A DNA stretch of 64,000 bases from Desulfobacterales bacterium (lineage in GTDB: Bacteria; Desulfobacterota; Desulfobacteria; Desulfobacterales; YD0425bin51), in the NCBI GenBank assembly GCA_015228685.1, contig JADGCY010000009.1, positions 103,589-167,588 of the forward strand. Reading direction: 5' to 3'. The position numbers and the translations under genes were made by a program. Below, piece by piece: positions 17,416 to 56,653 of this stretch. The notes under the pieces were generated by a model. The model saw only the letters and a program-made list of their open reading frames with translations, ran no database searches and was not told the origin of the DNA. Every line of letters starts with the position of its first letter. Positions within the stretch are counted from its first letter, which is position 1.

Positions 17416-17430
17416 TATATATTTCCCCCT

Positions 17431-17745: not shown

Positions 17746-17856
17746 TGAAATCTTACCTCCTTTGTTATAAAACTAAAAATGATATCTAACTATGTCCGTT
17801 TATTCAATTTTTTTCAAGAAATTTTTGAAAAATTAAATTTAGGAGGAAAAAATAAT

Positions 17857-18870: not shown

Positions 18871-18926
18871 TAAAAACTGTTCTGAGGCTAAATAATCCTT
18901 AATTTGAGCACGGACAGATCAAGAGT

Positions 18927-19214
18927 TTGGAATTGAGTGATAGGCTTAAATTTGAGAGAAAGTTAGAACTAATGAAAACAACAGAATATTTCAAGCATAC
19001 GAAAAAAAGAACTGATCGTTCAATAATATTGGATGAATGGATTAACCATGTCATCCAACACCCAGAAAAAATACAAATTCAATCTGACGGAAGAATAAGA
19101 AAATGGGCATATATTTCTGAGGAGGATAAATTCCTTCGGGTTATCCTATTGGAAGATGAAGAAACTATTCATAATGCTTTCTTTGATAGATCATTTAAGG
19201 AGAATCGGCAATGA
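18927..19214 (+). CDS. DUF4258-family protein (putative toxin of a DUF4258/DUF2283 TA pair)
   Basis: 95-aa basic protein. It has an ATGA stop/start overlap with the downstream DUF2283 gene. Confidence 0.55.
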   Translation: MELSDRLKFERKLELMKTTEYFKHTKKRTDRSIILDEWINHVIQHPEKIQIQSDGRIRKWAYISEEDKFLRVILLEDEETIHNAFFDRSFKENRQ

Positions 19215-38997: not shown

Positions 38998-39992
38998 AAC
39001 AAATAATTAATAATCAAGATAGCAATCGTTATCTATTTTTTTATCTTATATCTCTTTTGTATGGTTATGTAATGAATATCAGAGCTAAATACTATAAAAA
39101 ACATGGAACAAAATCTCTTCCTTGCAAGGTGATTTCCATTGGCAACTTGACTGTAGGAGGAACAGGTAAAACTCCTACAACAATATATATTGCAAAATTA
39201 GTTAAAGACTTAGGATATAAAACAGCAGTTATCAGCAGAGGTTATAGAGGATCAAAAGAAAAAACAGGCGGGGTAGTAAGCAACGGCAAAAATATTTTTA
39301 TGTCAGTCGAGGAAGCTGGTGATGAGCCTTTTATGATGGCAAATATATTAGAGGGAATACCAGTTTTTATTGGGAAAGATAGGTTTAATATCGGAATGTT
39401 GGCTTTTAAAACTTTTAAACCAGATATTATTATTTTAGATGATGCATTCCAACACCTTAAAGTTATGAGAGATATTAATCTTTTGCTCTTGGATTCTAAT
39501 AAACCATTTGGTAACGGATATATCCTTCCAAGGGGTACTTTAAGAGAGCCAATATCATCAATAAACAGAGCTGATGCAATTATTTTTACAAGATATAACA
39601 CAAAATATTTGTTACCAGCTTTTAACACGGAAAAAACTTTTAAGTCTTTTTATATTCCAAATATTCCTGACTCTTTAGAATCACATAAAATTTTTGTTTT
39701 TTCAGGAATAGCTAAAAATAAAGATTTTAGAGAAATGTTATCGAATTTTGACATCAAAGGATTTATGGAATATCCAGACCATCATACATATAGCGAAAAA
39801 GATATCGAAAATATTATAGAATCTGCAAAAAAAAATGGGGCAGATATGTTAGTTACAACAGAAAAAGATTATGTAAAGATTGAAAATAAACTTAACATTT
39901 CAATCCCTATTATAAAAATAGGGATTGAAGTTTCCTTTGGAAATGATAACGAAAGGTTCAAAGATTTTATTAAAAAAAGGCTTTCTTTTTAA
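38982..39992 (+). CDS. lpxK: Tetraacyldisaccharide 4'-kinase
   Basis: P-loop GNLTVGGTGKTP typical of LpxK. It overlaps waaA by 16 nt. Confidence 0.85.
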   Translation: MQNRIEQIINNQDSNRYLFFYLISLLYGYVMNIRAKYYKKHGTKSLPCKVISIGNLTVGGTGKTPTTIYIAKLVKDLGYKTAVISRGYRGSKEKTGGVVSNGKNIFMSVEEAGDEPFMMANILEGIPVFIGKDRFNIGMLAFKTFKPDIIILDDAFQHLKVMRDINLLLLDSNKPFGNGYILPRGTLREPISSINRADAIIFTRYNTKYLLPAFNTEKTFKSFYIPNIPDSLESHKIFVFSGIAKNKDFREMLSNFDIKGFMEYPDHHTYSEKDIENIIESAKKNGADMLVTTEKDYVKIENKLNISIPIIKIGIEVSFGNDNERFKDFIKKRLSF

Positions 39993-41209: not shown

Positions 41210-43150
41210 TTGGATTTAATTTTTATGAACGGTTATAAAAAAGATACTCTTGAAAGATGGACTTATGATAAGTCTGCAGATTTATATGGAATTCAAAATT
41301 GGGGAGCAGGATACTTTGACATCTCAGAAAAGGGCGATGTAGTTATAATGCCAAATAGAGGGAATAAAAACATTAGAACAAGTATTATGGATATTGTCTC
41401 AGGTCTAAAAGATAGAGGCTTTGATATGCCTGTACTCCTTAGAATTGAAAATATTTTAGATTCACAGCTTACGCGAATACATGAAAACTTTAAAAAAGCT
41501 ATAACTACATTTGGATATAAAGGAATTTATAAAGGAGTCTATCCAATTAAAGTTAATCAACAAAGAGAAGTAGTTGAAGAGGTTACACAATTTGGCTCCT
41601 GCTATCATCATGGCTTAGAAGCAGGGAGTAAAGCAGAGCTTACAGCTTCTCTTGCAATGTTGAAAGACCCTGAAGCATGTCTTATATGTAATGGTTATAA
41701 AGATGAAGAATTTGTTGATTTAGGTCTTTATGCAACAAAAATGGGCTTTAATTGTTTTTTTGTTTTAGAGATGCCAAGTGAACTTTCTTTGATATTAGAA
41801 AGAGCTGAAGCATTAAATATTAGACCTCTTATTGGCGTAAGAATCAAGCTGTCATCAACTGCAAGCGGACATTGGATAGAATCATGCGGTGACCGAAGTA
41901 TATTTGGTTTAAATACAACTCAGCTTGTAGCAGTTATAGATTGCCTTAAAGAAAAGAATATGCTTGATTGCCTTCAATTACTTCACTACCATATTGGTTC
42001 ACAGGTTCCAAATATCAGGGATATCCGTTCTGCAGTTCTTGAGGCATCCCAGGTTTATATTGGACTTGTTGCTGAAGGAGCTAAAATGGGATATTTAGAC
42101 CTAGGAGGAGGTTTAGCAGTTGATTATGACGGCTCTCACACAAATTATATGCATAGCAGAAATTATACTCTATACGAATACTGTGCTGATGTAATTGAAA
42201 CTATTATGGCAACTCTCGATGAGAAAAATATTGACCATCCTACAATAATAACTGAATCAGGACGAGCAACAGTTGCTTATTATTCTGTACTTTTATTTAA
42301 TATTCTTGATATAAGCCAATTTGAAGCCTTGCCACTTCCAGATAAGTTTTTAGAAACAACCCCAGAGCTTATTGTAAATTTATTTGAAGTTTTAACTTCA
42401 ATGAATTTAAGGAATATTCAGGAGTGCTACAATGATGCTCTATATTACAGAGATGAAATCCGTCAGCTTTTTAAGCATGGTGATATTAGTTTAAGAGAAC
42501 GTTCACTAGGAGAAATGATATTTTGGCACATTATCAAAAAAATTGCAGAAGAGTGTAAAAAACTAAAATATATTCCCCAAGAACTTAAAGATATTGATGT
42601 TGTTTTGGCAGATATTTATTATGGTAATTTTAGCGTATTTCAGTCTCTCCCTGATGCATGGGCAATAGATCATCTATTTCCTGTTATGCCAATTCATAGA
42701 TTAAATGAAGAGCCGACCCGTCAAGGTATTTTAGCTGATATTACTTGTGACTGTGATGGAAAAATTGATAAGTTTATTGACATTCATGGCGTAAAACGTG
42801 CCCTTCCTTTACATGAATTTAAAGCTGATGAAGAATATTATCTTGGAGTTTTTTTAGTTGGAGCGTATCAGGAAACTCTAGGAGATTTACATAATCTTCT
42901 TGGAGACACAAACGTAGTTACAATAAGGATAGGAGATGACGGAGACTATAGCTTTGTAAGGGAAAGTGAAGGAGATTCAGTTGCTGATGTTTTGACTTAT
43001 GTTGAATATGATCCCAAACAGATGATCATTGAATTTAGGAAAACAGCAGAAGAAGCTGTTAGAAAAGGTCTTATTACGCCCCATGAGCGAAAGAAAATTA
43101 TGGAAGCGTATGATGCTGGACTTAGAGGATACACATATTTCGAGAAATAA
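41210..43150 (+). CDS. speA: Biosynthetic arginine decarboxylase
   Basis: The N-terminal SpeA signature (WTYDKSADLYGIQNWGAGYF) and a PLP-dependent fold III decarboxylase layout. ~640 aa. Confidence 0.9.
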   Translation: MDLIFMNGYKKDTLERWTYDKSADLYGIQNWGAGYFDISEKGDVVIMPNRGNKNIRTSIMDIVSGLKDRGFDMPVLLRIENILDSQLTRIHENFKKAITTFGYKGIYKGVYPIKVNQQREVVEEVTQFGSCYHHGLEAGSKAELTASLAMLKDPEACLICNGYKDEEFVDLGLYATKMGFNCFFVLEMPSELSLILERAEALNIRPLIGVRIKLSSTASGHWIESCGDRSIFGLNTTQLVAVIDCLKEKNMLDCLQLLHYHIGSQVPNIRDIRSAVLEASQVYIGLVAEGAKMGYLDLGGGLAVDYDGSHTNYMHSRNYTLYEYCADVIETIMATLDEKNIDHPTIITESGRATVAYYSVLLFNILDISQFEALPLPDKFLETTPELIVNLFEVLTSMNLRNIQECYNDALYYRDEIRQLFKHGDISLRERSLGEMIFWHIIKKIAEECKKLKYIPQELKDIDVVLADIYYGNFSVFQSLPDAWAIDHLFPVMPIHRLNEEPTRQGILADITCDCDGKIDKFIDIHGVKRALPLHEFKADEEYYLGVFLVGAYQETLGDLHNLLGDTNVVTIRIGDDGDYSFVRESEGDSVADVLTYVEYDPKQMIIEFRKTAEEAVRKGLITPHERKKIMEAYDAGLRGYTYFEK

Positions 43151-43166
43151 AATTTAGGAGGTTGAT

Positions 43167-44345
43167 ATGTCAAAAGTTTTGATTATTGGTGCAGGCGGAG
43201 TAGGGCAGGTGGTTGTCCATAAGTGTTTGCAAGTTCCAGAAGTTTTCACAGAAATTTGCTTGGCAAGCAGAACAATAGAAAAATGTAATAAAATTGCATC
43301 ACAGCTTTCAAAGCCTATTAAAACAGCCAAAGTTGATGCTGACAATGTTCATGAACTGGTTAGTTTGATTTATGATTTTAAACCTGAACTAATTATAAAT
43401 GTTGCTTTGCCCTACCAGGACCTTTCAATAATGGATGCATGTTTAGAAACAGGAGTTGATTATTTAGACACAGCCAATTATGAGCCAAGAGATGTTGCAA
43501 AATTCTGTTATAAATGGCAATGGGACTATCAAGAACGATTCAAAAATAAAGGGATAATGGCTCTTCTTGGTTCAGGTTTTGATCCCGGAGTTACCAATGT
43601 TTTTTCTGCATGGGCACAAAAACATCATTTTGATGAAATAGATGAGTTAGATATCATAGACTGCAATGCTGGAGATCATGGACAGCCTTTTGCAACTAAT
43701 TTCAATCCAGAAATAAACATAAGAGAGGTTACTGCAAAGGGAAGATATTTTGAAATGGGAAAATGGATAGAAACAGATCCTTTATCTGTCTCAAAGATAT
43801 TTGATTTTCCTGAAGGAATTGGAGCAAAAAAGATATATTTGCTTTATCATGAAGAATTAGAGTCCCTTGCAAAAAATATCAAAGGTTTAAAGCGTGCTAA
43901 CTTCTGGATGACTTTTTCTGATAATTATTTAAAACATTTAGAAGTGTTACAAAATGTTGGAATGACAAGAATCGATCCTGTCTTATACAATGGTCAGGAA
44001 ATAATTCCTCTACAGTTTTTAAAAGCTTTGCTCCCTGATCCATCATCACTTGGTCCTCTTACAAAAGGGAAAACTTGTATTGGTTGCTTAATAAAAGGAA
44101 TAAAAAATGGAAAACAAAAAACATATTATATCTATAATATTTGTGATCATGAACAGGCTTATAAAGAAGTAGGCTCTCAAGCAATATCTTATACAACAGG
44201 TGTGCCAGCAATGATAGGCGCAATGATGATGTTAACTGATAAATGGCGCGGAAAAGGTGTATTTAATATGGAAGAACTTGATCCTGACCCATTTATGGAA
44301 AAATTAAATATTTATGGATTGCCATGGAAAGAAATTATCCTGTAA
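43167..44345 (+). CDS. Carboxynorspermidine/carboxyspermidine dehydrogenase (saccharopine dehydrogenase-like)
   Basis: Rossmann motif KVLIIGAGGVGQVV. Length 392 aa. It is immediately upstream of and overlapping nspC, as in CANSDH-CANSDC operons. Confidence 0.8.
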   Translation: MSKVLIIGAGGVGQVVVHKCLQVPEVFTEICLASRTIEKCNKIASQLSKPIKTAKVDADNVHELVSLIYDFKPELIINVALPYQDLSIMDACLETGVDYLDTANYEPRDVAKFCYKWQWDYQERFKNKGIMALLGSGFDPGVTNVFSAWAQKHHFDEIDELDIIDCNAGDHGQPFATNFNPEINIREVTAKGRYFEMGKWIETDPLSVSKIFDFPEGIGAKKIYLLYHEELESLAKNIKGLKRANFWMTFSDNYLKHLEVLQNVGMTRIDPVLYNGQEIIPLQFLKALLPDPSSLGPLTKGKTCIGCLIKGIKNGKQKTYYIYNICDHEQAYKEVGSQAISYTTGVPAMIGAMMMLTDKWRGKGVFNMEELDPDPFMEKLNIYGLPWKEIIL

Positions 44346-45481
44346 AACTTAATTTAGATCTTGTCAAAACACCAGCTTTTATTGTTGATGAGAGTCTAAT
44401 TAAGCGTAATTTAGAAATTCTAGATTTAGTACAAAAAAGAACAGGCGCTAAAATTCTCCTTGCTTTAAAAGGGTTTGCTATGTTTAGCCTATTTAGCCAA
44501 ATAAAAGAGACCTTACACGGAGTATGCGCAAGTTCTCCTCATGAAGCAAGGCTTGGATATGAAGAATTTGGAAGAGAGATCCACGCTTTTGCACCAGCTT
44601 ACAGCGAAATAGATATAAAAGATTTATCTTATTATTGTGACCATATTATTTTTAATTCTTTTCCTCAATGGAAAAGGTTTAAAAACCTTATTTATGAATT
44701 AAAACCTAAAATGGAATGCGGAATTAGGATTAATCCTGAATATTCTGAAATAAAGGTTAAACTTTATGACCCATGCGCTCCAAATTCTCGTCTTGGAGTA
44801 AGACTTAATTCATTTGAAGAAGAATATTTAGAAGGAATTTCTGGAATTCATTTTCACACCATGTGCGAGCAAAATGCTGATACCTTGATGCGTATTCTTG
44901 AGATTGTTGAGAATAAATTTGGAAAATATCTTCATAAAATGAAGTGGGTAAATTTTGGAGGGGGAAATCATATAACAAAATCAGATTATAATATCAATCT
45001 TCTTTGCGAAATTATTTTAAAATTTCGTGATAAATATAATGTCCAAGTTTACTTAGAGCCAGGAGAAGCTGTTGCTTTGAATACTGGTATCTTAGTCGCC
45101 TCAGTTTTAGACATTATAAATGATAACATTAAAATCGCAATCTTAGATACATCTGCAGCAAACCATATGCCTGATGTATTAGAAATGCCATACAGACCTA
45201 AAATTGTAGGAGCAGGAGATGCTTATGAAAAAGCTTATACATATAGACTTGGAGGTCTAACATGTCTTGCTGGAGATGTTATTGGTGATTATTCTTTTGA
45301 TGAACCTTTAGCTATTGGTTCAAAGATCATATTTTTAGATATGGCTCATTATAGCATGGTCAAAACAAATACATTTAATGGGATAAAACTTCCATCTATA
45401 TGTATATATGATCCTTATAAAGATGAATTAAAAGTTATTCGTGAATTTGGATACGAAGACTTTAAAGGGAGGCTTTCATGA
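44324..45481 (+). CDS. nspC: Carboxynorspermidine/carboxyspermidine decarboxylase
   Basis: PLP fold III decarboxylase with the NspC-like N-terminus. It overlaps the upstream dehydrogenase gene by 22 nt. Confidence 0.85.
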   Translation: MERNYPVKLNLDLVKTPAFIVDESLIKRNLEILDLVQKRTGAKILLALKGFAMFSLFSQIKETLHGVCASSPHEARLGYEEFGREIHAFAPAYSEIDIKDLSYYCDHIIFNSFPQWKRFKNLIYELKPKMECGIRINPEYSEIKVKLYDPCAPNSRLGVRLNSFEEEYLEGISGIHFHTMCEQNADTLMRILEIVENKFGKYLHKMKWVNFGGGNHITKSDYNINLLCEIILKFRDKYNVQVYLEPGEAVALNTGILVASVLDIINDNIKIAILDTSAANHMPDVLEMPYRPKIVGAGDAYEKAYTYRLGGLTCLAGDVIGDYSFDEPLAIGSKIIFLDMAHYSMVKTNTFNGIKLPSICIYDPYKDELKVIREFGYEDFKGRLS

Positions 45482-46170
45482 ATTTTAATAAAATACTGTT
45501 TATGATTTTAGTAGTTCTTATAGCTTTAGCATCTCTATTGATTTATTTTAAAAAAAATGATGCTGTTACAGAAAATAAACTATTAGAACAAAATAAGGCT
45601 ATCTCTTCAATGAAAATTGAAACAACAACCTATATCCCTGCCCATAAGAATAATATTTCCAAAGATAAAAAAGAAGAAAAAAAAGAAGCAACTTCTGAAC
45701 AGAATGATGAAGAAGATATTTCATCCGTAACTCCTCTTCCTGAAGAGGCTGCTCCATTTATTCCAAATTTAGGTGAAGCCAAATCTATTGATAAAGATGC
45801 TTATAAAAAAGAAATAGAGCAGATGAAAGAAGTCCTTCCAGGAAATATGATGATTCCTTATGAGCTTTCAGCGCCAGAAAGCAAAGAGCAGAATAAATTA
45901 TTTAGTGAAATATTTATGTTAGAAAAGAAAGTAAATGAAGGTTTAGCTACAAAAGAAGAGAAAAAAGAATACTATGCCAATAAAATTAAAATGGCAAAAG
46001 ATCAGATAGATATTATCAAATACTACCAAGGAAAAATAAAAAAAATAGAAACTGAAAATGGGAGTAAACATTTATCACAGGATGATTTAAAAGATGCTGA
46101 TAAAAAAATTGAAGAACTAAATAAAGAACTTGAGGAATTTAAAGCAAAGATAGCATCTTTAAACCAATAA
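45478..46170 (+). CDS. Hypothetical membrane-anchored coiled-coil protein
   Basis: N-terminal TM (ILFMILVVLIALASLLIYF), then a Lys/Glu-rich low-complexity coiled-coil. It has an ATGA overlap with nspC. Confidence 0.45.
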   Translation: MNFNKILFMILVVLIALASLLIYFKKNDAVTENKLLEQNKAISSMKIETTTYIPAHKNNISKDKKEEKKEATSEQNDEEDISSVTPLPEEAAPFIPNLGEAKSIDKDAYKKEIEQMKEVLPGNMMIPYELSAPESKEQNKLFSEIFMLEKKVNEGLATKEEKKEYYANKIKMAKDQIDIIKYYQGKIKKIETENGSKHLSQDDLKDADKKIEELNKELEEFKAKIASLNQ

Positions 46171-46198: not shown

Positions 46199-46357
46199 AT
46201 GAAGAATGAAAAAAATGAAAATAATAAAGATAAAAAAGAAGATAAAGCTAAGCCTAAATATGTTCCTCCAAATATAATTACCTATACTGAAGAAGAGCTA
46301 TTGGAACAAATAGGACCAGCACAGGCCTGCACTGGACAGCCTTGTGGAATAAATTAA
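46199..46357 (+). CDS. Candidate RiPP precursor peptide (52 aa, unannotated)
   Basis: AGGAGA RBS sits 8 nt upstream of ATG 46199. Translation: MKNEKNENNKDKKEDKAKPKYVPPNIITYTEEELLEQIGPAQACTGQPCGIN. It has a charged leader-like N-terminus and a C-terminal core with two Cys. It ends 31 nt upstream of the rSAM/SPASM gene and is below the 60-aa ORF-track cutoff. Confidence 0.45.
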   Translation: MKNEKNENNKDKKEDKAKPKYVPPNIITYTEEELLEQIGPAQACTGQPCGIN

Positions 46358-46388
46358 ATGTTCCATAATTCTAAAAAATATTTTATTT

Positions 46389-47714
46389 ATGATATACCAT
46401 GTATGTAGTAAAGAAGAATATGTTTTTTTACACGAAAATAAGCCAAAATGGCTTATTTTGAATAAAACTGCAAGAGAGATTGCATTAAGCTTATTAAATG
46501 ATAAATCTATTGAAAATATAGCAAAAACATTAATCAAAAAGTATGGTATATCAAATGAAGTTGCAGAAAAAGATATAGCTTATGTTTTAAATGAGCTAAT
46601 ACAAAAAGATTTTATCAGTAAAGATAACTCTCCTTTATTTCAAAGAATTCCTGCATTAGAATCAGTATATTTTCATTTAACAAATAGGTGTAATCTTTTA
46701 TGCCCACAATGTTATATTGCTTTTGGGAAAGATCAAATAATAGATTTAAATATAGATCATGTTATTAAATTAATAGATGAATTAGTAGAGATTGGAGGTA
46801 AAAAGATTACACTTTCTGGTGGAGAACCTCTTCTATATCCATTCATAAAAAATGTTATTGATTATTCTTCAAAACATCTTGAAATTACAATGTTAACTAA
46901 TGGAACTCTTTTGGATAAAGAATGGGCTGAATATTTATCAGATAAACCATTACATATTCAAATCAGTATAGATGGCTCAAACAGTAATATTCATGATAAT
47001 ATTAGAGGCAAAGGTACTTTTGATAAAATAGTTAAAAGTGTTGGATACCTTCAAAATGCAGGTCTTTCAAAACATATTAATTTTTGCACCACTATTATAA
47101 AGCAAAACATGGATGATTTAGCTAATATAATAAAGTTAGCAGAAAAATTAGAAATCCCTCTTACTCGTTTTTTACCGCTTAGGAAAATTGGCAGAGCTAA
47201 TGAAAAATGGGATGAAATATCTGGCATGAATACAGAGGAATATGAAACATTATTTAACTACATGATAGAAAAGCAAAAATATAGCAAAGTAAAAATTACA
47301 TATGGGTCAAGTGGATTTCTCCTTCACATTCCTGATGATTCTTTAAAAGATTATATTTGGTGTCCAGTAGGTAAAATGATTACAATAGATATTCATGGAA
47401 ATGCTTATCCATGTGTTTTAATGATGCGTGATGAATTTAAACTTGGAAATATTTTTAAAGATAATTTATTTCAGATAATTAATTCTGATAAAATGTTAAA
47501 TACATGTTATGCACTTTCTAATAGGCGGAATAAAATATTAAAATGCGCGAAATGCTATTGGCGAAATTTTTGCCAATCAGGCTGTATGAGTCATGCTTTG
47601 GATTATAAAGGAACTGTGTGGGATACTGATCCTTTTTGCAATTTTCGTAAAAATGCTTATAAAAATGCTTTTGAAACTATATCAAAGATTGAAGATGAAA
47701 AAAGAAGTCAATAA
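46389..47714 (+). CDS. Radical SAM/SPASM-domain peptide maturase with fused N-terminal PqqD-like RRE domain
   Basis: CxxxCxxC (HLTNRCNLLCPQCY) and a SPASM Cys array (CPVGK...C, CAKCYWRNFCQSGC). The N-terminal ~85 aa resemble a PqqD-like winged helix (LILNKTAREIALSL...ISNEVAEKDIAYVLNELIQKDFI). Confidence 0.85.
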   Translation: MIYHVCSKEEYVFLHENKPKWLILNKTAREIALSLLNDKSIENIAKTLIKKYGISNEVAEKDIAYVLNELIQKDFISKDNSPLFQRIPALESVYFHLTNRCNLLCPQCYIAFGKDQIIDLNIDHVIKLIDELVEIGGKKITLSGGEPLLYPFIKNVIDYSSKHLEITMLTNGTLLDKEWAEYLSDKPLHIQISIDGSNSNIHDNIRGKGTFDKIVKSVGYLQNAGLSKHINFCTTIIKQNMDDLANIIKLAEKLEIPLTRFLPLRKIGRANEKWDEISGMNTEEYETLFNYMIEKQKYSKVKITYGSSGFLLHIPDDSLKDYIWCPVGKMITIDIHGNAYPCVLMMRDEFKLGNIFKDNLFQIINSDKMLNTCYALSNRRNKILKCAKCYWRNFCQSGCMSHALDYKGTVWDTDPFCNFRKNAYKNAFETISKIEDEKRSQ

Positions 47715-48225
47715 ATGGCAAGATATAATTCTTGAAATTTGGAAAAAAGAAAACCGCAAGATAAAACTTATTGTAAAAGGTTTTAGTATGGAACCTTATA
47801 TACATGCTAATGATACAATTCTTATAAATCTCTTGCCATATGATAAAATTAAAATTGGAGATATTACAGCATTTTTACAGAATGGTAAGATAGTTGTTCA
47901 TAGGATTATAAAGATAAAGAAGTATAAAGGTAAACTTTTATTTTGCCAAAAAGGTGACAATTTAACTGGATATAGCTGGATAGAATCAGATCAGATTATT
48001 GGCAGAGTTGATATAATAGAACGAGATAACAGAAAAATTTATTTTAAAAAACCGTCTAATGCTTTGCTAAATTTGTTTTTAGGAATATCAGGATTAGTAT
48101 TTATAAATATTTTTGAATTGTTAACTCCTTTAAAAAAATCATTATTTGGAAACCAAAGCTTACCAATTATTAAATTAATTAACTTTTGGAACCGCCTAAT
48201 ATATAAGTTTTATGTATTACAATAA
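47695..48225 (+). CDS. S26/S24-fold signal-peptidase-I-like serine peptidase
   Basis: GFSMEP (the GxSMxP nucleophile motif), GDI, and VVHRIIK aligning with KR(I/V)IG of SPase I. The start was chosen at the in-frame ATG overlapping the rSAM stop, as translational coupling. Confidence 0.6.
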   Translation: MKKEVNKWQDIILEIWKKENRKIKLIVKGFSMEPYIHANDTILINLLPYDKIKIGDITAFLQNGKIVVHRIIKIKKYKGKLLFCQKGDNLTGYSWIESDQIIGRVDIIERDNRKIYFKKPSNALLNLFLGISGLVFINIFELLTPLKKSLFGNQSLPIIKLINFWNRLIYKFYVLQ

Positions 48226-51217
48226 GTTTTTGTTTTTATTGTTATTTTTAGTGAATACGTTTTTTTTTACTGAAATTTCTGCAAATGATCTTAATATTCT
48301 GCATGAGGATGAAAATGAACTTACGATAGAGTTGCTATTGCCTAATTTTGAATTGCAAAAAGATTATATTCAAATATCTGGATGGGCATTTATGACCCAA
48401 ATTGGCTCTCCAGAACTTCCTATAAAAAGCTTATTGCTAAAAACCCCTCAATCATCAACTATTAAAATAGAAATTATTCAAAATGATAATTATAAAATTT
48501 CAAATTGCTATATTAAACCTGTTCAACCTTTAACAAGAGTCAGCCCTATATTTGAAAATGATGAAATCATTAATGAATTTAAATTTGATAAAGCTATTTA
48601 CAATAGCGTAAAGTTTTATCCTGGAAAGTTAGCAGAAATAGAATCTCAAGGTTTTTTTCGAGGAACCCCGTTTGCTAGATTAATGATTTATCCATTTCAA
48701 TGGAATCCCACAACAAAGGAATTAATCTATAGTAAGAGGCTGATATTTAAAGTTTCGTTTAAAAAAAAAATTAATAATACTTCCTATTTTATCAATAATA
48801 TGAATTCATTTAATAACATATATGATCAAATAAAAGAAAACCTTTTTATTAATAAAGAAAACCTTTTAAAAAATAATGCTGCTTCTATAATAAAAGATAA
48901 ATCTTCTCAATCAGAAGATTTTAAAGAAGGACTTAAAATTATAATTAAAAAAGAAGGAATATATCGTCTAACATATGATGATTTAAAAACAATTGGAATT
49001 GAGCTTTCATCAATTGATCCAAAAACTTTTCAGATATTTAATCAGGGTAATGAAATTGCTATTAAAGTAATTTCATTAAAAGAGCAATTTGGCGAAGGTG
49101 ATTATATAGAGTTTTTTTCAACAAAAATTGATAACCAGTATACAGATACTAACGTATATTGGCTTTATTGGAATAATAATTATGGCAAACGTATCGAAAG
49201 TATAGATGGAAAAATAACAGGACAAGGTAAAAAAGTTGATACTTTTTATGAAACCCTTCATTTTGAAGAGAATCATACAATATGGGAAAGCACACCAGGA
49301 TCTCCAGACAAGGATTACTGGTTCTGGGAAAAGATGAATGGTAATGTAACAAAAAATTACACAATATCTGTGCCATCACCTTTAAATGATTCATCTCAAG
49401 CATTAATGCGAGTTCATTTTCAAGGATGTTCTACTGCAAGCTCTCATCCTAATCATCATACAATTATTTCTATGAATAATATTTCAATGGGCAATAATTT
49501 TTGGGATGGTGATAAAGAATATATTCAAGAGGCAAGTTTCTCTGTAAATAATCTAATAAATGGCAATAACACATTAACAATCAAATCTCCAGCAGATACA
49601 GGTGCTTCAGTAGATGTAATTTACTATAATTGGATTGAGCTTAATTATTGGAGAGTTATGAAAGCAAATCAAGATCTGCTCAATTTCATAATTGAAGGAG
49701 ATGATAAAATTGAGGCACGTGTAAGCGGTTTTAGCCAGTCAGATGTTAAAATTTATGATATTACTGATCCTTTATATGTAAAAGAAATTTTAAATGCTCA
49801 GATTGAAAATACAGAAGGTGCTTATAAATGTATTTTTGAGGATCAAATCGAAACTAAAAAACAGTTTTATGTTATTGGAAGTTCAAACATAGAAAAACCA
49901 TCTGAAATATCTTTATGGCGTTCTGAAAATTTGAAAAGCGAATCAAATAGCGCTGATTATATTGTGATTAGCCCAAAAGAATTTCTATCTTCTATTCAGC
50001 CCTTATGCGATTTTAGACAAAATCAAGGTTTAAGGATAAAAAAAGCAGCTATAGAGGATATTTATAATGAATTTAATTATGGAATATTTGATCCAAAGGC
50101 AATTAAAGACTTCTTGAAATATACTTATCAAAATTGGGCAAAACCAGCTCCTACATTTGTATTACTTGCTGGAGATGCAAATACTGATTACAGGGATTAC
50201 TTTGGGACAGGTAAAAAAACAAAGATTCCAGCACATTTAACTTATTTTTCAGATTCAGGATTAAGACCAGATGATAACTGGTATGTTTGTTTAGAAGGAG
50301 ATGACCCTTTAACAGAAATGATGTTAGGAAGAATTCCTGGAAAAGATAATGATACAATTTCTCAAATTGTAAATAAAATGATAACCTTTGAAGATATTAA
50401 AAAAAAACCTAAAAGCGTGTTACTGGCTGCTGATAATGATGAAATATCATTTGAAAATTTATGCGAAAATCTAATTCCACATATTCCATCAGATTATACT
50501 ATTGATAAAGTATATCTAAGACTTTATCAAGATGCAGATGATGCAACTCAAGATATTCTTTCAAACATGGATAAGGGTAACCTTATAAGCAATTATGTTG
50601 GACATGGAAATATTAAAATTTGGTCTGGAGAACCTTTGTTTGAATCTTCCAATGTAAATTCATTAAAAAACAATGGCAATAAATTAACATTTGTAATTTC
50701 GATGAGTTGTCTAAATGGTTATTTTTCTCATCCTAATTATTATTGTCTTTCTGAAGAACTTATTGCAGCTAAGGACAAAGGCGCACTTGCTTGTTTATCT
50801 TCTAGTGGAAGCTCATATCAATCAGAAAATGAGGTTTTCAACAAAGAAATTTTTTCTGTTATTTTTAATAACAAAAACTATACAATAGGATCAATTGTAG
50901 CAGATTCAAAGAGTGCCGCATATTCAAAAGGTGTTTCATATGAAAGTATATTGATCTTTCATTTATTAGGAGATCCTGCATCTCAGCTTATGGAAAAGGA
51001 AAATAGCACAAGTAGCACTACAACAAGTATTTCGACTACTACTATGTCATCAAGTTCTACAACAACATCAGAATTAACAACTTCTGTCATTACAAGCACA
51101 ATAAGTAGTACAACTTCACAACCAACTAGTTCTGTTGAACAACAGTCAAATGATAATAAATCTGGAGGTGGCGGTGGATGCTTTATTTCAATAGCAATAA
51201 ACAGCAAGATCTTTTAG
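48212..51217 (+). CDS. Secreted peptidase C25 (gingipain-like, caspase-fold) domain protein with Ser/Thr-rich C-terminal stalk
   Basis: Signal peptide. His motif NYVGHGNIK and Cys motif ISMSCLNGYF resemble C25 catalytic dyad contexts (compare gingipain ...ACVNGDF). It overlaps the S26-like gene by 14 nt. Confidence 0.6.
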   Translation: MYYNKFLFLLLFLVNTFFFTEISANDLNILHEDENELTIELLLPNFELQKDYIQISGWAFMTQIGSPELPIKSLLLKTPQSSTIKIEIIQNDNYKISNCYIKPVQPLTRVSPIFENDEIINEFKFDKAIYNSVKFYPGKLAEIESQGFFRGTPFARLMIYPFQWNPTTKELIYSKRLIFKVSFKKKINNTSYFINNMNSFNNIYDQIKENLFINKENLLKNNAASIIKDKSSQSEDFKEGLKIIIKKEGIYRLTYDDLKTIGIELSSIDPKTFQIFNQGNEIAIKVISLKEQFGEGDYIEFFSTKIDNQYTDTNVYWLYWNNNYGKRIESIDGKITGQGKKVDTFYETLHFEENHTIWESTPGSPDKDYWFWEKMNGNVTKNYTISVPSPLNDSSQALMRVHFQGCSTASSHPNHHTIISMNNISMGNNFWDGDKEYIQEASFSVNNLINGNNTLTIKSPADTGASVDVIYYNWIELNYWRVMKANQDLLNFIIEGDDKIEARVSGFSQSDVKIYDITDPLYVKEILNAQIENTEGAYKCIFEDQIETKKQFYVIGSSNIEKPSEISLWRSENLKSESNSADYIVISPKEFLSSIQPLCDFRQNQGLRIKKAAIEDIYNEFNYGIFDPKAIKDFLKYTYQNWAKPAPTFVLLAGDANTDYRDYFGTGKKTKIPAHLTYFSDSGLRPDDNWYVCLEGDDPLTEMMLGRIPGKDNDTISQIVNKMITFEDIKKKPKSVLLAADNDEISFENLCENLIPHIPSDYTIDKVYLRLYQDADDATQDILSNMDKGNLISNYVGHGNIKIWSGEPLFESSNVNSLKNNGNKLTFVISMSCLNGYFSHPNYYCLSEELIAAKDKGALACLSSSGSSYQSENEVFNKEIFSVIFNNKNYTIGSIVADSKSAAYSKGVSYESILIFHLLGDPASQLMEKENSTSSTTTSISTTTMSSSSTTTSELTTSVITSTISSTTSQPTSSVEQQSNDNKSGGGGGCFISIAINSKIF
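51001..51170 (+). repeat. Ser/Thr-rich low-complexity coding tract (mucin-like linker)
   Basis: STSSTTTSISTTTMSSSSTTTSELTTSVITSTISSTTSQPTSS is translated from this tract. It is ACN/AGY-rich. Confidence 0.6.
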
Positions 51218-51240
51218 TAGAAGAAAAGCTTACAATTTTG

Positions 51241-52410
51241 ATGTGTAGAATTAGTTTAGATGATGAAGAATCTAAGCAATTGCATATCCTTTTATCACAG
51301 CCTTTAAATTGGAGTTTGCTTCTTGAAATATCTCAAAGAGCCATAATTTTGCCTCTTTTTTTTAAACATTTATCTCAAGAACAATTTTTAAAATATGTTC
51401 CAAAAGGTGTTTTAACAAATTTAAATACAATATATCGTAATATTGCTTTACAGAACTTAAGAATACAGAGCCAAATAAAAGAAATTTTAAAATCAATGCA
51501 AGAGTCTAATATTCCTATTATTTTACTGAAAGGTGCATATTTATCAAACTGCCTCTATGATGACATTGCGATTAGACCAATGGGTGATATTGATATTCTA
51601 TGTCAAAAGTCTGATATGGAAAAAGCAAGTGAAAAAATAAAGGAAATAGGATACAAACAATTCAAATTTCCACAAAGTTCTCTTCACTTTACAAATTCCA
51701 ATCATTTAATTCCTTTTGAAAAAACAAATAAGCTTTCTATCGAAATACATGATTATATTTTTTCAGCTAAAGATAAAAATTTTGAAGTTATGAATAATAT
51801 TTGGGAGTCAGCAGTTCCAAAAAAAATATATGGATTTCCCATTTTATCCCTATCTGTTGAAGATGAAATTTTACATTTATCTTGTCACTTATATAAACAT
51901 TTGAGCACATATGAGAAGAAATTTTATTGGTTTTGTGATATTCATGAAATTATAAAACAGAATAAAAATCAAATAGATTGGGATAAACTGTATTATAGGG
52001 TTCAAAATTTATATATAGATAAGCAAATTGGCACTATATTCTATTTTATGAAAGATGTCTGGCATTCTCCTATACCAGAAAATTTTTTAAGTAAGAAAGA
52101 CGAGAAAAAAGAAAAAAATTTAGCAAAAGAAATATTTAGTAATAATATAAATTATTTTAAATATTATCTAAAAATTTTTAATGATGTTTGGAGTTTTAAA
52201 GGTCTGAAGACCCCAATTATTTATTTATTAAGATGTTTTTTTCCTGATAGGTCACATCTAATCAATAGATATGAAGTAAAAAATAACGCTATTAATTGGA
52301 TATTACTTTTACTAATTCATCCTTTTATAGTTATATTTAGAGCATTCGGGAGAGTTATAACTACTATTTACTATGAGCAAAAAAATAGATTCCTATCAGT
52401 ATTTTTATAG
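51241..52410 (+). CDS. Nucleotidyltransferase-family protein (PF14907/NTP_transf_5-like)
   Basis: ILLKGAYLSNCLYDDIAIRPMGDIDIL fits the uncharacterised-nucleotidyltransferase signature (hG[GS]x9-13Dh[DE]h). The start was set at the internal Met to avoid overlap with the upstream gene. Confidence 0.6.
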   Translation: MCRISLDDEESKQLHILLSQPLNWSLLLEISQRAIILPLFFKHLSQEQFLKYVPKGVLTNLNTIYRNIALQNLRIQSQIKEILKSMQESNIPIILLKGAYLSNCLYDDIAIRPMGDIDILCQKSDMEKASEKIKEIGYKQFKFPQSSLHFTNSNHLIPFEKTNKLSIEIHDYIFSAKDKNFEVMNNIWESAVPKKIYGFPILSLSVEDEILHLSCHLYKHLSTYEKKFYWFCDIHEIIKQNKNQIDWDKLYYRVQNLYIDKQIGTIFYFMKDVWHSPIPENFLSKKDEKKEKNLAKEIFSNNINYFKYYLKIFNDVWSFKGLKTPIIYLLRCFFPDRSHLINRYEVKNNAINWILLLLIHPFIVIFRAFGRVITTIYYEQKNRFLSVFL

Positions 52411-53437
52411 AATTTTAGATGTAGATGTCTGTTTGAGATCTGAAAAAATTGAACTTTTTAATTTGTTTATGGATGATTATGATTGGTTTAGAACCAAGTA
52501 TTTATCAAATGAAAATATATTAGATTTTTCAATTACATCTTATAATGGCAAAGATGAGCTAGTAGTACTTCCATATAATGATATTTATGATATTTCTGCA
52601 CACCCAAGTCCTAATAATTATATTTATCAAATAATTTTACGAGAATTGTTTGATAAATTTAAAGATTTCTTTGTTTTGCATGCTGGAGTTGTTTCTATTG
52701 ATGAAAATGTATTAGCAATTTCTGGTTCACAAGGTATTGGGAAAACTACTTTTATTTTAGAGTTACTTAAAAATAATTGTATATTTTTTTCAGATGATTT
52801 TTGTCCAATTCACAAAGCGACAAAGTTGGTTTATCCTTTCCCAAGAAATTTATGGATAAAAAACAAAAACAAAAAAAATCCAATTAGAATAAAAGAGCTA
52901 TCATCAGCTATTTCAGACATTCCACAAAAATTAAAGTGGTTAATATGCCTTAAAGAAATAAATAATAAAAATGATTTTTGTCATATAGAAGTTATTTTAA
53001 AGGATGAAGATAATTGTTTTATTCAAGAATTATATAAAATTGGTTATATTACAATTAATAATTCTTTTAATGAAAATTTTCCCTTATTGTCAATTAGCTA
53101 TCCAAAAGGTAGAGGAATAACATTAAAAATTAAAGAATTATTGAAAAAACATAAAGATAATATATGGAATTTTTATCGCATTGATAGAAATGCTCCCCCA
53201 GACTTTTTAAAAGAAGCTGAACTTAAAGCAATGAGTACAAATGATGCAGCATTTTTTTTGCTTCATGAACTTAAAAGTAAAGTTAGTTTAGATAATATAG
53301 ATATAAAACCAATGAGCGTTTTTATGAAATTATTTGAAATTTTAGAAGGTATTCAGTGTTATTCTCTTAATGTAGGTAAAATAGAATCAATGCGCAAATT
53401 GGTTCTAAGTTTAATAAATGGAAAAATGGAGGTATAA
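52373..53437 (+). CDS. HprK-related P-loop kinase
   Basis: LHAGVVSIDENVLAISGSQGIGKTTFILELLKNNCIFFSDD aligns with the HPr kinase C-domain P-loop region (LHG..V...GVLITGDSGIGKSE.ALEL...G..LVADD). Confidence 0.7.
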   Translation: MSKKIDSYQYFYRILDVDVCLRSEKIELFNLFMDDYDWFRTKYLSNENILDFSITSYNGKDELVVLPYNDIYDISAHPSPNNYIYQIILRELFDKFKDFFVLHAGVVSIDENVLAISGSQGIGKTTFILELLKNNCIFFSDDFCPIHKATKLVYPFPRNLWIKNKNKKNPIRIKELSSAISDIPQKLKWLICLKEINNKNDFCHIEVILKDEDNCFIQELYKIGYITINNSFNENFPLLSISYPKGRGITLKIKELLKKHKDNIWNFYRIDRNAPPDFLKEAELKAMSTNDAAFFLLHELKSKVSLDNIDIKPMSVFMKLFEILEGIQCYSLNVGKIESMRKLVLSLINGKMEV

Positions 53438-53442
53438 GAAAT

Positions 53443-53688
53443 ATGAGCCAATTTATTATTAAAAAAATTAATAATGAGTTGATGTTTTATGATACAAAAA
53501 TGAATAAAGTCCACATTTTAAATGAATCTGCACAATTGATTTACAATCTTTATATAAAAGAAAAATCTTTGGAAGATATTGAAAATGAAATAAGTAATAA
53601 TTTTCAAATAGAGGAAAATTATAAGACAATTCATTATGATATAGAAAAATGTATAGGAATTATGAAGGAAAAGGGTCTGATAATTTAA
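53443..53688 (+). CDS. PqqD-family protein (stand-alone RRE-like peptide chaperone)
   Basis: 81 aa. LMFYDTKMNKVHILNESAQLIYNL...SLEDIENEISNNFQI...DIEKCIGIMKEKGLI fits PqqD. It lies 5 nt after the kinase. Confidence 0.7.
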   Translation: MSQFIIKKINNELMFYDTKMNKVHILNESAQLIYNLYIKEKSLEDIENEISNNFQIEENYKTIHYDIEKCIGIMKEKGLII

Positions 53689-55145
53689 TTTAAGAATGAT
53701 TTCAGATCATCAACTATTATTTTATAGGATTTTAAAGCAACCATTAATTCTTTAATATTAAAACTGTCAGCAAAAGTTAATAATTCATTTCCATAATTAG
53801 AGAGCTTTTTTATTCCATATAGTGTGCCTATTTCTTTTATTTTTTTCCCAAAAGATTCTATAATAGTTAAGTTTTGAGACTCCAAAGATTTTTCACATTC
53901 ATTATATAATTCATTTTCAAGTAAAAAAATGATTTCTGGCAATTTTTCTTTTGTTTTTATAGAGATTTCTTCTAATTTTAGATCGTTTATTTTTTTCTCT
54001 TCTTCAAAGTTGCTTTTATATCTACTATTTTCTCCATACTCATATTTTATGGTAAAGAAGAAAGAGCTTCCTTTATCTTTTATGCTTTCTACCCATATTT
54101 TACCATTCATCATCTCTACCAAATTTTTTGAAATTGCTAAACCAAGACCTGTTCCACTATATTTGTGACTATTAAATTGAGTAAACTTTTTAAAAAGATT
54201 TGGAATGTTATTTTCTGATATACCTATACCTGTGTCTTTAACTGAAAAAAGAAGCGTATACTCCTCTTGCTTTATAACACTAATATCTATGTTACCTTCA
54301 TCTGTAAATTTTACAGCATTGCTGACTAAGTTTTTTAAAATTTGATCAAGTTTATGAGAATCTGTCTTTATATATTCTGGAACTGCAGGATCGATATTAA
54401 CATTAATTTTTATGTCTTTATTATAAGCTATTGAATGTGTTATTTGAATAATGCTTTTCATTAAATTATATATATTAAAAGTCTCAACTTTTAATTCAAA
54501 TGCTCCAACTTCTATTTTTGAAAAATCCAAAATATTATTTATCAAATTTAGAAGTTTTGTACCGCTTTGAATTATATTATCAATATATTCTATCTGCTTT
54601 CTATTAAGTTTTCCTATATTTTGATCTTTCAATATGTGTGAAAATCCAAGTATCGAATTCATTGGAGTTCTGATTTCATGGCTAATCGATGCCAAAAAAT
54701 CAGTTTTAGCAAGATTTGCAGTTTCTGCTTCATCTCTTGCTTTTTGCAGTTCAGTTTGTAAATTTTTTATCATCAAATGCTTTTTTATACGAGCAATTAG
54801 TTCTTCTGGGTGAAATGGTTTTGTGATATAGTCTAAAACATTCATTTCAAGCCCTTTAAGTTTGTCTTGAATATCTCTATGAGCTGTCAAGAATATTACA
54901 GGGTTATAAGCTTTGTTAAAATGCTCTTGTAACTTAGCACATACATCAAAACCATCAATATCTGGCAGAGTAATATCAAGAAGAATAATATCTGGCGAGT
55001 TATTTAAAAATTTTTTTATTCCATCAGTTCCATTTTCAGCAACTAAAATTTTAAAATTTTCTCTCTTCAAATGAAAAAGCACAAGTTCTCTATCTAATGG
55101 ATCATCCTCTATAAATAATATTGTAGCTTTTTTATCTTCACCCAT
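53685..55145 (-). CDS. Response-regulator/histidine-kinase hybrid (REC-HisKA-HATPase + C-terminal helical domain)
   Basis: N-terminal REC (ILFIEDDPLD...LLDITLPDIDG), H-box [14 protein letters not shown] and HATPase GTGLGLAI. Confidence 0.85.
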   Translation of the reverse strand: MGEDKKATILFIEDDPLDRELVLFHLKRENFKILVAENGTDGIKKFLNNSPDIILLDITLPDIDGFDVCAKLQEHFNKAYNPVIFLTAHRDIQDKLKGLEMNVLDYITKPFHPEELIARIKKHLMIKNLQTELQKARDEAETANLAKTDFLASISHEIRTPMNSILGFSHILKDQNIGKLNRKQIEYIDNIIQSGTKLLNLINNILDFSKIEVGAFELKVETFNIYNLMKSIIQITHSIAYNKDIKINVNIDPAVPEYIKTDSHKLDQILKNLVSNAVKFTDEGNIDISVIKQEEYTLLFSVKDTGIGISENNIPNLFKKFTQFNSHKYSGTGLGLAISKNLVEMMNGKIWVESIKDKGSSFFFTIKYEYGENSRYKSNFEEEKKINDLKLEEISIKTKEKLPEIIFLLENELYNECEKSLESQNLTIIESFGKKIKEIGTLYGIKKLSNYGNELLTFADSFNIKELMVALKSYKIIVDDLKSFLN

Positions 55146-55147
55146 TT

Positions 55148-56653
55148 TTATTCTTCCTTGTGATTATTATTTAAAGGTAAATATATATAAAAAATAGATC
55201 CTTCTCCAACTTTAGAGTCTACAGAAATATAACCATTATGTTTTTTTATTATGGAAAAAGAAGTGCTAAGACCAAGACCAAGACCTTTTTGCGAGTATCT
55301 TTTCTTTGTTGAATAATAAGGATCAAATATAATTTGAATATCTTTTTCAGGAATACCAATCCCTTGATCCTTAATGCTTATCTCAATATATTTACCGGGT
55401 AGGATGGGTGATTTTTCTTCTCCAAAAATTTCAATATTTTTTATATTGATTTTAATTTCTCCTTCTTTTGGCATGGCTTCTTTTGCATTCAACAAAATAT
55501 TATAAATAACATTTTTTATCTGCGTCTCATCAAATTCAACTTTCCAGATCTTGTCATCAGAAGAAAAGCTTACCATAGAAGTTGAGTCTCCTAAAGCCAA
55601 ACTAATTGCCTCTTGTATTGTTTTTTCGATATTTCCTATTTTTTTTGAGGGTCTTATTCCTTTTGATAGATTTAATAGATATTTAATCAAATCTTTAGAT
55701 TTTAATAATCCGCTTTTAGCCTCACTCAATAGTTGATATAGTTCTTCATTAAACTTTATTTTTTCTTTTGTCAGTTCAATATAACCAAGAATTGCAGCAT
55801 TTAAATTATTGAAATCATGGGCAATACCACCTGCAAAAATTCCAGCAGATTCAAGCTTTACAATTTTTAACATTTCTTCTTCTCTTTTTTTTCTATCTGT
55901 TATATTTGTTGCAATCCCTTCAATAATTGTATCATTATTTTCTATTTTGTTTACTATAGACTTATCAGAAAGCCAGAGCCATTCACCATTAGCATCTTTA
56001 ATCCTATATTCAACTTCAGACTTTTTATTTTTTTGAAGTGATTTAAGTATATTATTATATTTTTCTATATCATCAGGGTGAATTAAATCAAACCATAAAA
56101 ATGGGTTTTTGTGGAAATCAGAGCTTTTATATCCCAAAATTTTTTCCACTCGACTTGAAACATAAAATTCTTTTTTTTTTTCTGAAAATGAGTAAATAAT
56201 ATCTGAAGTACCTTCTAAAAGACGCCTATACTTTGCTTCACTTTCCTGAAGATTTTCTCTTGATCTTTTTAAAGCAAGCTGTGTTTTTACCCTGGCTAAT
56301 ACTTCTGCAGGGTGAAAAGGTTTTTGAATATAGTCTACAGCTCCTACTTCAAAACCTTGCATAATACTTTCGATATTTGTTTTTGCTGTAAGAAACATGA
56401 TAGGTATCTCTTTTGTTATAGAGTTATTTTTAAAATGTTTGCATACTTCAAAACCATCCATTTCTGGCATCATAATATCTAATAGAATCAAGTCAAACAT
56501 TGACATAGAAGCAAGTTTAATAGCCTGTTTGCCATCAGTTGCAAAAGAAAGTGAATAACCTTGTTCTCTTAAAGTATTACCTAAAACCTGAATGTTTTCA
56601 GGTATATCGTCAACTATAAGGATTTGAAAATTTTTATTATATTCATTCTCCAT
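55148..56653 (-). CDS. Response-regulator/PAS/histidine-kinase hybrid
   Basis: REC (ILIVDDIPEN...LLDIMMPEMDG), a PAS-like segment, H-box GGIAHDFNNL and HATPase GLGLGLS. It lies 2 nt upstream of the preceding hybrid kinase on the minus strand. Confidence 0.85.
   Translation of the reverse strand: MENEYNKNFQILIVDDIPENIQVLGNTLREQGYSLSFATDGKQAIKLASMSMFDLILLDIMMPEMDGFEVCKHFKNNSITKEIPIMFLTAKTNIESIMQGFEVGAVDYIQKPFHPAEVLARVKTQLALKRSRENLQESEAKYRRLLEGTSDIIYSFSEKKKEFYVSSRVEKILGYKSSDFHKNPFLWFDLIHPDDIEKYNNILKSLQKNKKSEVEYRIKDANGEWLWLSDKSIVNKIENNDTIIEGIATNITDRKKREEEMLKIVKLESAGIFAGGIAHDFNNLNAAILGYIELTKEKIKFNEELYQLLSEAKSGLLKSKDLIKYLLNLSKGIRPSKKIGNIEKTIQEAISLALGDSTSMVSFSSDDKIWKVEFDETQIKNVIYNILLNAKEAMPKEGEIKINIKNIEIFGEEKSPILPGKYIEISIKDQGIGIPEKDIQIIFDPYYSTKKRYSQKGLGLGLSTSFSIIKKHNGYISVDSKVGEGSIFYIYLPLNNNHKEE

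Follow-up and report, generated by a model that had tools for sequence, protein, structure and literature searches.

A His-type S26B peptidase as the probable leader peptidase of a radical SAM RiPP-like cassette in a Desulfobacterales bacterium

The concept of a SipW-like leader peptidase for peptides that are made on the ribosome and modified after translation (RiPPs) has been known since 2026, from the linear polyphosphorylated peptide (LPP) clusters of Bacillota (Popov et al., Nat Commun, May 2026; PMC13381572). In these clusters, the leader carries the motif YxxPxVLxHQxIxFET and is removed by LppS, an archaeal-type, SipW-homologous (SpI-like) peptidase whose cleavage requires the discrete RiPP recognition element (RRE) LppB. 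The S29A, H68A and D93A variants of LppS were all inactive, and its N-terminal helix was predicted to contact the RRE-leader sheet, with mutagenesis in support (PMC13381572). Radical S-adenosylmethionine (SAM) enzymes are never mentioned in that paper. Signal peptidases go unmentioned in a 2023 review of RiPP leader proteases, and a paper on ruminococcin C used "signal peptidase" loosely for the proteases of a sactipeptide cluster, with no evidence for an S26 enzyme. Here, we describe a peptidase gene at 47695..48225 (+) of a 64,000-nucleotide stretch of DNA from a Desulfobacterales bacterium (contig JADGCY010000009.1; the whole stretch analysed is referred to as the window). From its homology to LppS and from its neighbourhood, the gene probably encodes the dedicated leader peptidase of a RiPP-like cassette, and we put the probability of this assignment at roughly 0.75. 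The new elements are the radical SAM and C25 peptidase context, the taxonomic range, and an active site that lacks one of the expected Asp residues.

The major data for the peptidase were profile searches, alignments to homologues and an AlphaFold2 model, which together gave an S26B-type (His-type) signal-peptidase-like protease of 176 amino acids. The NCBIfam archaeal model TIGR02228 (sigpep_I_arch) was passed at E=4.4e-17 (62.4 bits against a cut-off of 51.85), whereas the bacterial Lys-type model TIGR02227 stayed below its cut-off (25.5 bits against 47). The sole Pfam match was Peptidase_S24 (28.8 bits, E=1e-6), and the closest solved structures by sequence were human SEC11A and SEC11C (E ~2e-7). 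The predicted nucleophile is Ser31 (codon at 47785..47787 (+)) within GFSMEP (residues 29-34), aligning with Ser56 of SEC11A and Ser29 of LppS. The predicted general base is His69 (47899..47901 (+)) within VVHRIIK (residues 67-73). VVHRII was paired with IVHRV of SEC11A (His96) in the HMMER alignment and with VAHRF of LppS (His68) in the BLASTP alignment. The Box E motif KGDN contributes Asp88 (47956..47958 (+)), which aligns with Asp116 of SEC11A and Asp87 of LppS. The original prediction, made by eye, had called an S26 fold with a Ser nucleophile and had suggested His rather than Lys as the general base. The fold and nucleophile were confirmed by the profile, PDB and fold searches. The choice of His was likewise upheld by the SEC11A and LppS alignments, by the score below the TIGR02227 cut-off and by the conservation described below; the comparison of S26A and S26B profiles that had been proposed to decide it came out for the archaeal type.

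An exhaustive search returned 134 representative clusters at E<1e-10. This overturned an impression of rarity, as a word-indexed search had found only the protein itself and one relative. In a 151-sequence alignment, Ser31, Met32, Pro34, His69, Arg70, Gly87, Asp88 and Gly103 were invariant or nearly so. Ser accounted for 145 of 146 residues at the nucleophile column of the homologue alignment, the HR pair (His69-Arg70) was found in 151/151 homologues, and the Asp of the GD motif (Asp88) was kept in 150/151. No conserved Lys was found at the general-base position of the 151-homologue alignment, and the question of Lys versus His is therefore settled for His. Since Ser, His and the GD Asp are invariant, an active enzyme is expected. 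The second Box-E Asp, six residues past Asp88, is absent from the window protein, where the segment reads LTGYSW. The window clade has G-W-x-W in place of this Asp, in a segment shortened by one residue. The position of LppS D93 corresponds to Tyr93/Ser94 in the window protein and to Trp in the clade consensus; the equivalent Asp is kept in the LppS-type, SipW-type and other RRE-linked clusters. Catalysis could rest on a Ser/His dyad, or Asp88 or a frequent acidic pair at 98/99 could serve as the acid. Ser/His dyad proteases exist.

The relationship to LppS was evaluated with the LppS-family sequences from Supplementary Data 1 of PMC13381572. The window protein and LppS share 31% identity over 102 residues (BLASTP E=2e-11), with the Ser and His aligned. 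On a hidden Markov model (HMM) of the window family, LppS scored 98 bits and other RRE-linked SpI clusters 62-136 bits, followed by SEC11A (54 bits) and true SipW (43-46 bits). These HMM scores and the BLASTP identity place the window protein in the same broad group as LppS.

The AlphaFold2 model, built with 23 homologues, had a mean predicted local distance difference test (pLDDT) of 89.4 and a predicted template modelling score (pTM) of 0.81. The predicted layout comprises an N-terminal helix (residues 2-18), which carries the conserved L13 and W16, a beta core (22-116), and C-terminal helices (120-150 and 158-175). Foldseek matched the model to the LexA C-domain, SEC11A/C, SpsB and SipA, all of the clan SF fold. 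Sec11, SipW and the archaeal signal peptidases bear an N-terminal membrane anchor. By the criterion of an N-terminal 19-residue window with a Kyte-Doolittle (KD) hydropathy of at least 1.6, such an anchor was found in 0 of 144 family members, with the Ser at about residue 32. Because it has no N-terminal anchor, the peptidase most likely acts at the cytoplasmic side, where its C-terminal helices may tether it to the membrane. The lack of an anchor, taken together with a Lys/Glu-rich precursor leader that has no hydrophobic core, indicates that this is not an ordinary secretory signal peptidase. A LepB paralogue was ruled out by the same two features, the missing anchor and the hydrophilic leader of the putative substrate. 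The label "Sec11/SipW-like" given to the gene at the outset therefore applies to its chemistry. It does not carry over to the cell biology, as the protein has no membrane anchor and a single Box-E aspartate instead of two.

In the window, the peptidase gene is preceded by a gene for a 52-residue precursor peptide (46199..46357 (+)), identified from homologous precursors, and by a gene for a radical SAM/SPASM peptide maturase with an N-terminal PqqD-like RRE domain (46389..47714 (+)), identified from profile searches and homologues. It is followed by a secreted peptidase of family C25 (gingipain/PorU-like, 1001 amino acids; 48212..51217 (+)), which has a signal peptide, a Ser/Thr-rich linker and a GGGGGCFIS... 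C-terminus; its signal peptide is typical and ends ISA↓ND. Next are an NTP_transf_5 nucleotidyltransferase-family protein (51178..52410 (+); profile search) and an HprK-like/ScmC-like P-loop protein (GSQGIGKTT; 52373..53437 (+)), a putative peptide kinase whose homologues carry PF27840 ScmC. The last gene encodes a discrete PqqD-like RRE of 81 amino acids (53443..53688 (+)), the likely partner presenting the leader to the peptidase. After the precursor and radical SAM genes, the successive junctions are overlaps of 20, 14, 40 and 38 nucleotides and then a gap of 5 nucleotides, and this tight packing argues for co-transcription.

The peptidase open reading frame (ORF) runs from ATG to stop, and its ATG lies 20 nucleotides within the 3' end of the radical SAM/SPASM ORF. 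The overlap between the two genes, for which translational coupling had been suggested originally, is thus real (ATG at 47695, radical SAM stop at 47714). It is particular to the window locus and was not kept in other loci, and only a weak purine-rich stretch was seen upstream of the ATG. An identical GenBank protein of equal length is named "MAG: signal peptidase I [Desulfobacterales bacterium]". A longer ORF from an ATG at 47593 was rejected: it would overlap the radical SAM gene by 122 nucleotides, the GenBank protein starts at 47695, and the hydrophobic N-terminus so gained has no counterpart in the homologues. The in-frame extension (47593..47694) would add 34 hydrophobic residues that mimic a signal-peptidase membrane anchor; it lies within the radical SAM coding region and is probably an artefact of an AT-rich alternative frame.

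The wider neighbourhood was approached from the peptidase alone, by scanning genomes and metagenomes with an 8-sequence alignment. This gave 26 loci, and the six-frame ORFs of all loci were searched with the window proteins. The peptidase was found beside a conserved cassette in about 22 of 25 distinct loci, which come from several phyla; this cassette consists of the precursor, the radical SAM/SPASM protein, the discrete PqqD, the HprK/ScmC-like kinase, the NTP_transf_5 protein and, usually, the secreted C25 peptidase. The cassette was present at nearly every locus with sufficient flanking sequence, the exceptions (L014/L031 and L028) being very short contigs or contig ends. Host organisms include Desulfobacteraceae, other Thermodesulfobacteriota, Myxococcota, Phycisphaerales and Syntrophaceae; Desulfobacterota, Myxococcota and Planctomycetota are among the phyla represented. 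The genes were arranged in at least four orders. The commonest was S26-precursor-rSAM-kinase-C25-PqqD...NTP (rSAM denoting the radical SAM gene); the others were precursor-rSAM-kinase-C25-S26-PqqD, precursor-rSAM-S26-C25 (the window and L004) and C25-S26-PqqD-precursor-rSAM-kinase. The tightest linkages of the peptidase were to the precursor and the discrete RRE. The sole close homologue from the first search, on an 832-bp contig, is followed with a 4-nucleotide overlap by a PqqD gene homologous to 53443..53688. The route through radical SAM homologues led to the long contigs L004 and L005, which contain the precursor, radical SAM/SPASM, peptidase (annotated as Peptidase_S24), C25, PqqD, NTP_transf_5 and HprK/ScmC-like genes.

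Distant family members (L032, L033 and L034) are still found beside PqqD, radical SAM, NTP_transf_5 and ScmC-like genes, two of the three without C25, and the peptidase is kept in the C25-less cassettes L008, L033 and L034. Since distant cassettes keep the peptidase, some of them without C25, the peptidase is deduced to be a core component and C25 an accessory. In L033 (2255..4426) and L034 (7065..9543), the order is PqqD, S26-like and radical SAM, with NTP_transf_5 and ScmC-type genes nearby, and the peptidases retain the second Box-E Asp. The proposal that the gene encodes the leader peptidase of a RiPP-like operon is thus strongly supported by its neighbourhood and by the precedent of LppS. 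The literature searches found no paper tying this peptidase type to radical SAM, C25 or Scm-type cassettes, with "S26" matches in RiPP papers that could not be assigned to the protease family from titles or abstracts. This agrees with the earlier remark that such an enzyme is uncommon for radical SAM RiPPs, as no paper was found joining the two.

Two loci have additional features. L005 (= L021) has an extra 321-residue SPASM-only protein (17258..18223) and a second discrete PqqD (18722..18973) downstream of the peptidase; the SPASM-only protein gave no match to the radical SAM core. L010 has an extra S26-like gene fragment (4552..4797) about 2 kb upstream, and its peptidase and precursor lie in a single stop-free frame (6753..7547), which could be a fusion or a sequencing error.

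The precursor data were the basis for the proposed cleavage site. The window precursor consists of a Lys/Glu-rich N-terminus, the sequence YVPPNI, the conserved block ITYTEEELLEQIGPAQA and the core CTGQPCGIN, and its leader is hydrophilic, without the hydrophobic core of a signal peptide. Across 22 precursors, the conserved block reads P-x-Y-x-x-P-x-[IV]-x-T-Y-T-[SG]-[DE]-E-[IL]-L-[EK]-[QE]-I-G-P-[AV]-x-A-C-[ST]-[PG]-x-P-C. The 24-residue stretch from Y to C showed no indels in these precursors, and a short variable tail follows the second Cys. All 22 homologous precursors carry YxxPx[IV]; in the window precursor, it is YxxPxI (Y21-I26; 46259..46276 (+)), a motif of the type bound by PqqD-like RREs. 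The general form of this leader motif bound by PqqD-type RREs is [Y/W]xxPx[L/V/I] (PMC13381572). Directly before the first Cys, the Ala at -1 is invariant in the 22 precursors and the residue at -3 is Ala (Val once). Small residues at -1 and -3 are the classical S26 cleavage pattern. The leaders of L033 and L034 are unrelated (W[CV]xP[QK]L...RSxPEExVL[LG]A-C) and their cores are Cys-rich, and here again an Ala stands directly before the first Cys. The invariant Ala at -1, the small residue at -3 and the Ala before Cys in distant cassettes lead to the proposal of cleavage at AxA↓C, which in the window precursor would be after Ala41-Gln-Ala43 and before Cys44 (46319..46330 (+)), a site drawn from conservation. 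We consider the chances that cleavage falls exactly there to be about even.

The following scheme is proposed for the window cassette, in which we infer the substrate, RRE dependence, cleavage site, topology and step order of the peptidase. The enzyme would be a minimal S26B domain with Ser31 as nucleophile, His69 as general base and Asp88 (KGDN) nearby. The discrete RRE (53443..53688) would bind YxxPxI of the precursor leader, and the N-terminal helix of the peptidase (residues 2-18) would dock on the RRE-leader sheet. Cleavage after Ala-x-Ala and before the first Cys would take place in the cytoplasm or at the inner membrane face and would free a short core, C[ST]PxPC.... Modification of the core before or during cleavage would be due to the radical SAM/SPASM protein with its own RRE, and perhaps to the HprK-like kinase and the nucleotidyltransferase. 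By analogy with LPP and paeninodin, a ready candidate for phosphorylation would be the conserved Ser/Thr at core position 2. The C25 peptidase could act in extracellular trimming or in attaching the peptide to the cell surface. In its most specific form, the scheme is an Asp-less Ser/His-dyad cytoplasmic enzyme, guided by a PqqD RRE, that would cut at AxA↓Cys in a two-Cys peptide crosslinked by the radical SAM protein and possibly phosphorylated. The product would belong to an uncharacterised RiPP class across Desulfobacterota, Myxococcota, Planctomycetota and others, with a secreted PorU-like C25 further processing or surface-attaching the exported peptide. This complete picture is offered tentatively and is somewhat doubtful as a whole.

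Several observations weigh against the assignment as a dedicated leader peptidase. Of 141 clade members, 119 have no Asp at +5 to +7 from the GD motif, and since the Asp that is catalytic in LppS is missing in the window clade, activity is not to be presumed. The C25 peptidase is a second conserved protease in the cassette and might itself be the enzyme that removes the leader. In the window protein, the C-terminal helix has a KD of 1.94 and could span the membrane, so that the proposed topology is provisional; this helix reaches KD 1.6 in just 27/144 members. LppS cuts after F-E-T and not after AxA, so its site does not simply carry over, and cleavage elsewhere, for example after TYT, is possible. 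The closest homologue of the radical SAM protein (53% identity, Candidatus Magnetomoraceae) is encoded alone, without the peptidase. Within 10 kb of it in its two loci (L002 and L003), gene calling gave no peptidase, C25, PqqD or kinase gene, and a search with the precursor was also negative. This lone radical SAM gene (L002 10001..11347; L003 4802..6148) adjoins a PCC-domain gene and FeoAB.

Three other explanations were considered. The loss of the residue equivalent to LppS D93 and SEC11A D122, when D93A inactivates LppS (PMC13381572), would suit a weakened or inactive protein that acts as a scaffold for the RRE-precursor complex, like SipA of Streptococcus pyogenes, with C25 or a host protease making the cut. 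SipA is among the Foldseek matches, and the cassette does conserve a second protease. That protease, however, is exported, whereas the radical SAM protein, the kinase and the RRE act in the cytoplasm, and related cassettes without C25 keep the peptidase. Furthermore, the near-invariance of Ser31, His69, Arg70 and Asp88 in 151 divergent sequences would be unexpected without catalysis, and Ser/His dyad proteases are known. We therefore consider a scaffold role unlikely. Still less probable, and in our estimation close to dismissal, is a SipW-like secretory signal peptidase that processes the Sec signal peptide of the adjacent C25 or of other exports, as SipW serves TasA and TapA. The 14-nucleotide overlap of the peptidase gene with the C25 start, the typical C25 signal peptide, the co-occurrence of C25 and peptidase in many loci and the passing of the archaeal-type signal peptidase I model (TIGR02228) are all consistent with it. 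It is contradicted by the anchor data, since an anchor placing a Sec11/SipW active site outside the membrane was present in 0/144 members, and by the C25-less cassettes (L008, L033 and L034) that retain the peptidase. In addition, true SipW scored lowest on the family HMM and LppS much higher, and the closest linkage of the peptidase is to the precursor and the discrete RRE.

The remaining alternative keeps an active peptidase and moves its site, either to a position after TYT, giving a longer core, or to the removal of the variable C-terminal tail, with C25 making a second, extracellular trim. LppS cuts 16 residues past the YxxP Tyr, where -1 is Thr and -3 is Phe (PMC13381572), while AxA lies 23 residues past that Tyr in the window precursor. 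The TYTSEEILEQIGPAxAC block is as conserved as a core would be, and RiPP leaders are commonly removed in two steps (PMC10885120). Against this, the Ala at -1 and Ala/Val at -3 agree with the preference of S26 enzymes for small residues, Ala recurs before the first Cys in the unrelated leaders of distant cassettes, and the tail past the second Cys is short and variable. Cleavage at such a different site is possible, although we would not expect it, and it overlaps in part with the preferred assignment, that of a dedicated leader peptidase cutting the conserved precursor.

The surroundings of the window cassette gave some further observations. The cassette (46199..53688) has 27% G+C compared with 31% for the whole window, and this slight difference could hint at horizontal acquisition. 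Upstream (41210..45481) are arginine decarboxylase, saccharopine-dehydrogenase-like and Orn/DAP/Arg-decarboxylase-family genes of the polyamine-pathway type, which are preceded by genes for a Kdo transferase and LpxK (37720..39992). A LIC_20245-like lipoprotein gene (45478..46170) lies between the polyamine-type genes and the precursor. The end of the cassette is faced by two convergent hybrid response-regulator/histidine-kinase genes (53685..56653 (-)). In the window, no gene for a transporter is adjacent to the cassette, whereas ABC transporter genes are found near it in L004 and L005. The Ser/Thr-rich linker near the end of the window C25 (51100..51217) is followed by SGGGGGCFISIAINSKIF at the C-terminus. 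A GGGGGGCFI[ST] C-terminus is common to the C25 proteins of L005/L021 (~15700..15772 in L005) and L007 (~8000..8077) and is absent from the others. From its sequence, this C-terminus looks like a sorting or anchoring tag with an invariant Cys.

Leader removal is the most frequent block to heterologous production of genome-mined RiPPs, and a small, portable peptidase that is RRE-guided and specific for Ala-x-Ala-type sites would be useful here. With the present assignment, the LppS principle would reach beyond the phosphopeptides of Bacillota to the radical SAM pathways of several phyla, anaerobic and environmental, and a cassette akin to SynChlorMet would gain a conserved precursor. The clade also offers a natural experiment on whether an ER-type signal peptidase can work without a third catalytic residue.

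Among the known systems, the SynChlorMet (Scm) cassette has the same protein types as the window cassette, namely an HprK-like protein (ScmC), a PqqD-like protein (ScmD) and radical SAM/SPASM proteins (ScmE and ScmF), and PF27840 ScmC matched the kinase-like gene in homologous loci. Membership of SynChlorMet was rejected because the radical SAM protein scored 113 bits against the ScmF cut-off of 400 and the kinase-like protein of the window gave no TIGR04249 match; the distant cassettes likewise fell below the Scm equivalog cut-offs. The Scm definition is not known to cover an S26 peptidase, a C25 protease or an NTP_transf_5 protein, and a full-text literature search found no paper containing the word "SynChlorMet". 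Another small soluble S26 enzyme that removes an N-terminal leader in the cytoplasm is SodX, the nickel superoxide dismutase maturation protease. SodX is a Ser/Lys enzyme that acts on one protein substrate and is not known to use an RRE, and its model (TIGR02754) matched the window protein weakly (17 bits, cut-off 63).

The S26A enzymes (LepB and SpsB) and LexA/UmuD (S24) share the clan SF beta-barrel and the equivalent Ser nucleophile with the window protein. They differ in using Lys as the general base where the window protein has an invariant His, and the window protein has neither a DNA-binding domain nor a periplasmic domain II. The endoplasmic reticulum (ER) and archaeal S26B enzymes (SEC11A, archaeal signal peptidase I and SipW) share the fold and the SM(E)P, HR and KGDN motifs. 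Unlike SEC11A with D116 and D122, the window protein lacks the second Box-E Asp and its loop. It also lacks the N-terminal anchor, and its putative substrate is a hydrophilic RiPP leader rather than a Sec signal peptide.

The closest likeness is to the LPP systems. Both LppS and the window protein are anchor-less, have about 150-180 residues, and consist of an S26B core flanked by a helix at the N-terminus and helices at the C-terminus. The LPP and window cassettes have in common a discrete PqqD-type RRE, an HprK-like kinase and an NTP transferase, and their precursors share the YxxPx[VI] leader motif. In the catalytic site, the triad Ser29/His68/Asp93 of LppS is reduced in the window clade to the Ser and His, without an equivalent of D93. 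No MsbA-type transporter is encoded in the window. Compared with LPP, the window cassette adds a radical SAM/SPASM protein with its own RRE and, usually, a secreted C25 peptidase. In place of the long variable LPP cores of Bacillota, this type of cassette has a short two-Cys core and is found in Desulfobacterota, Myxococcota, Planctomycetota and others.

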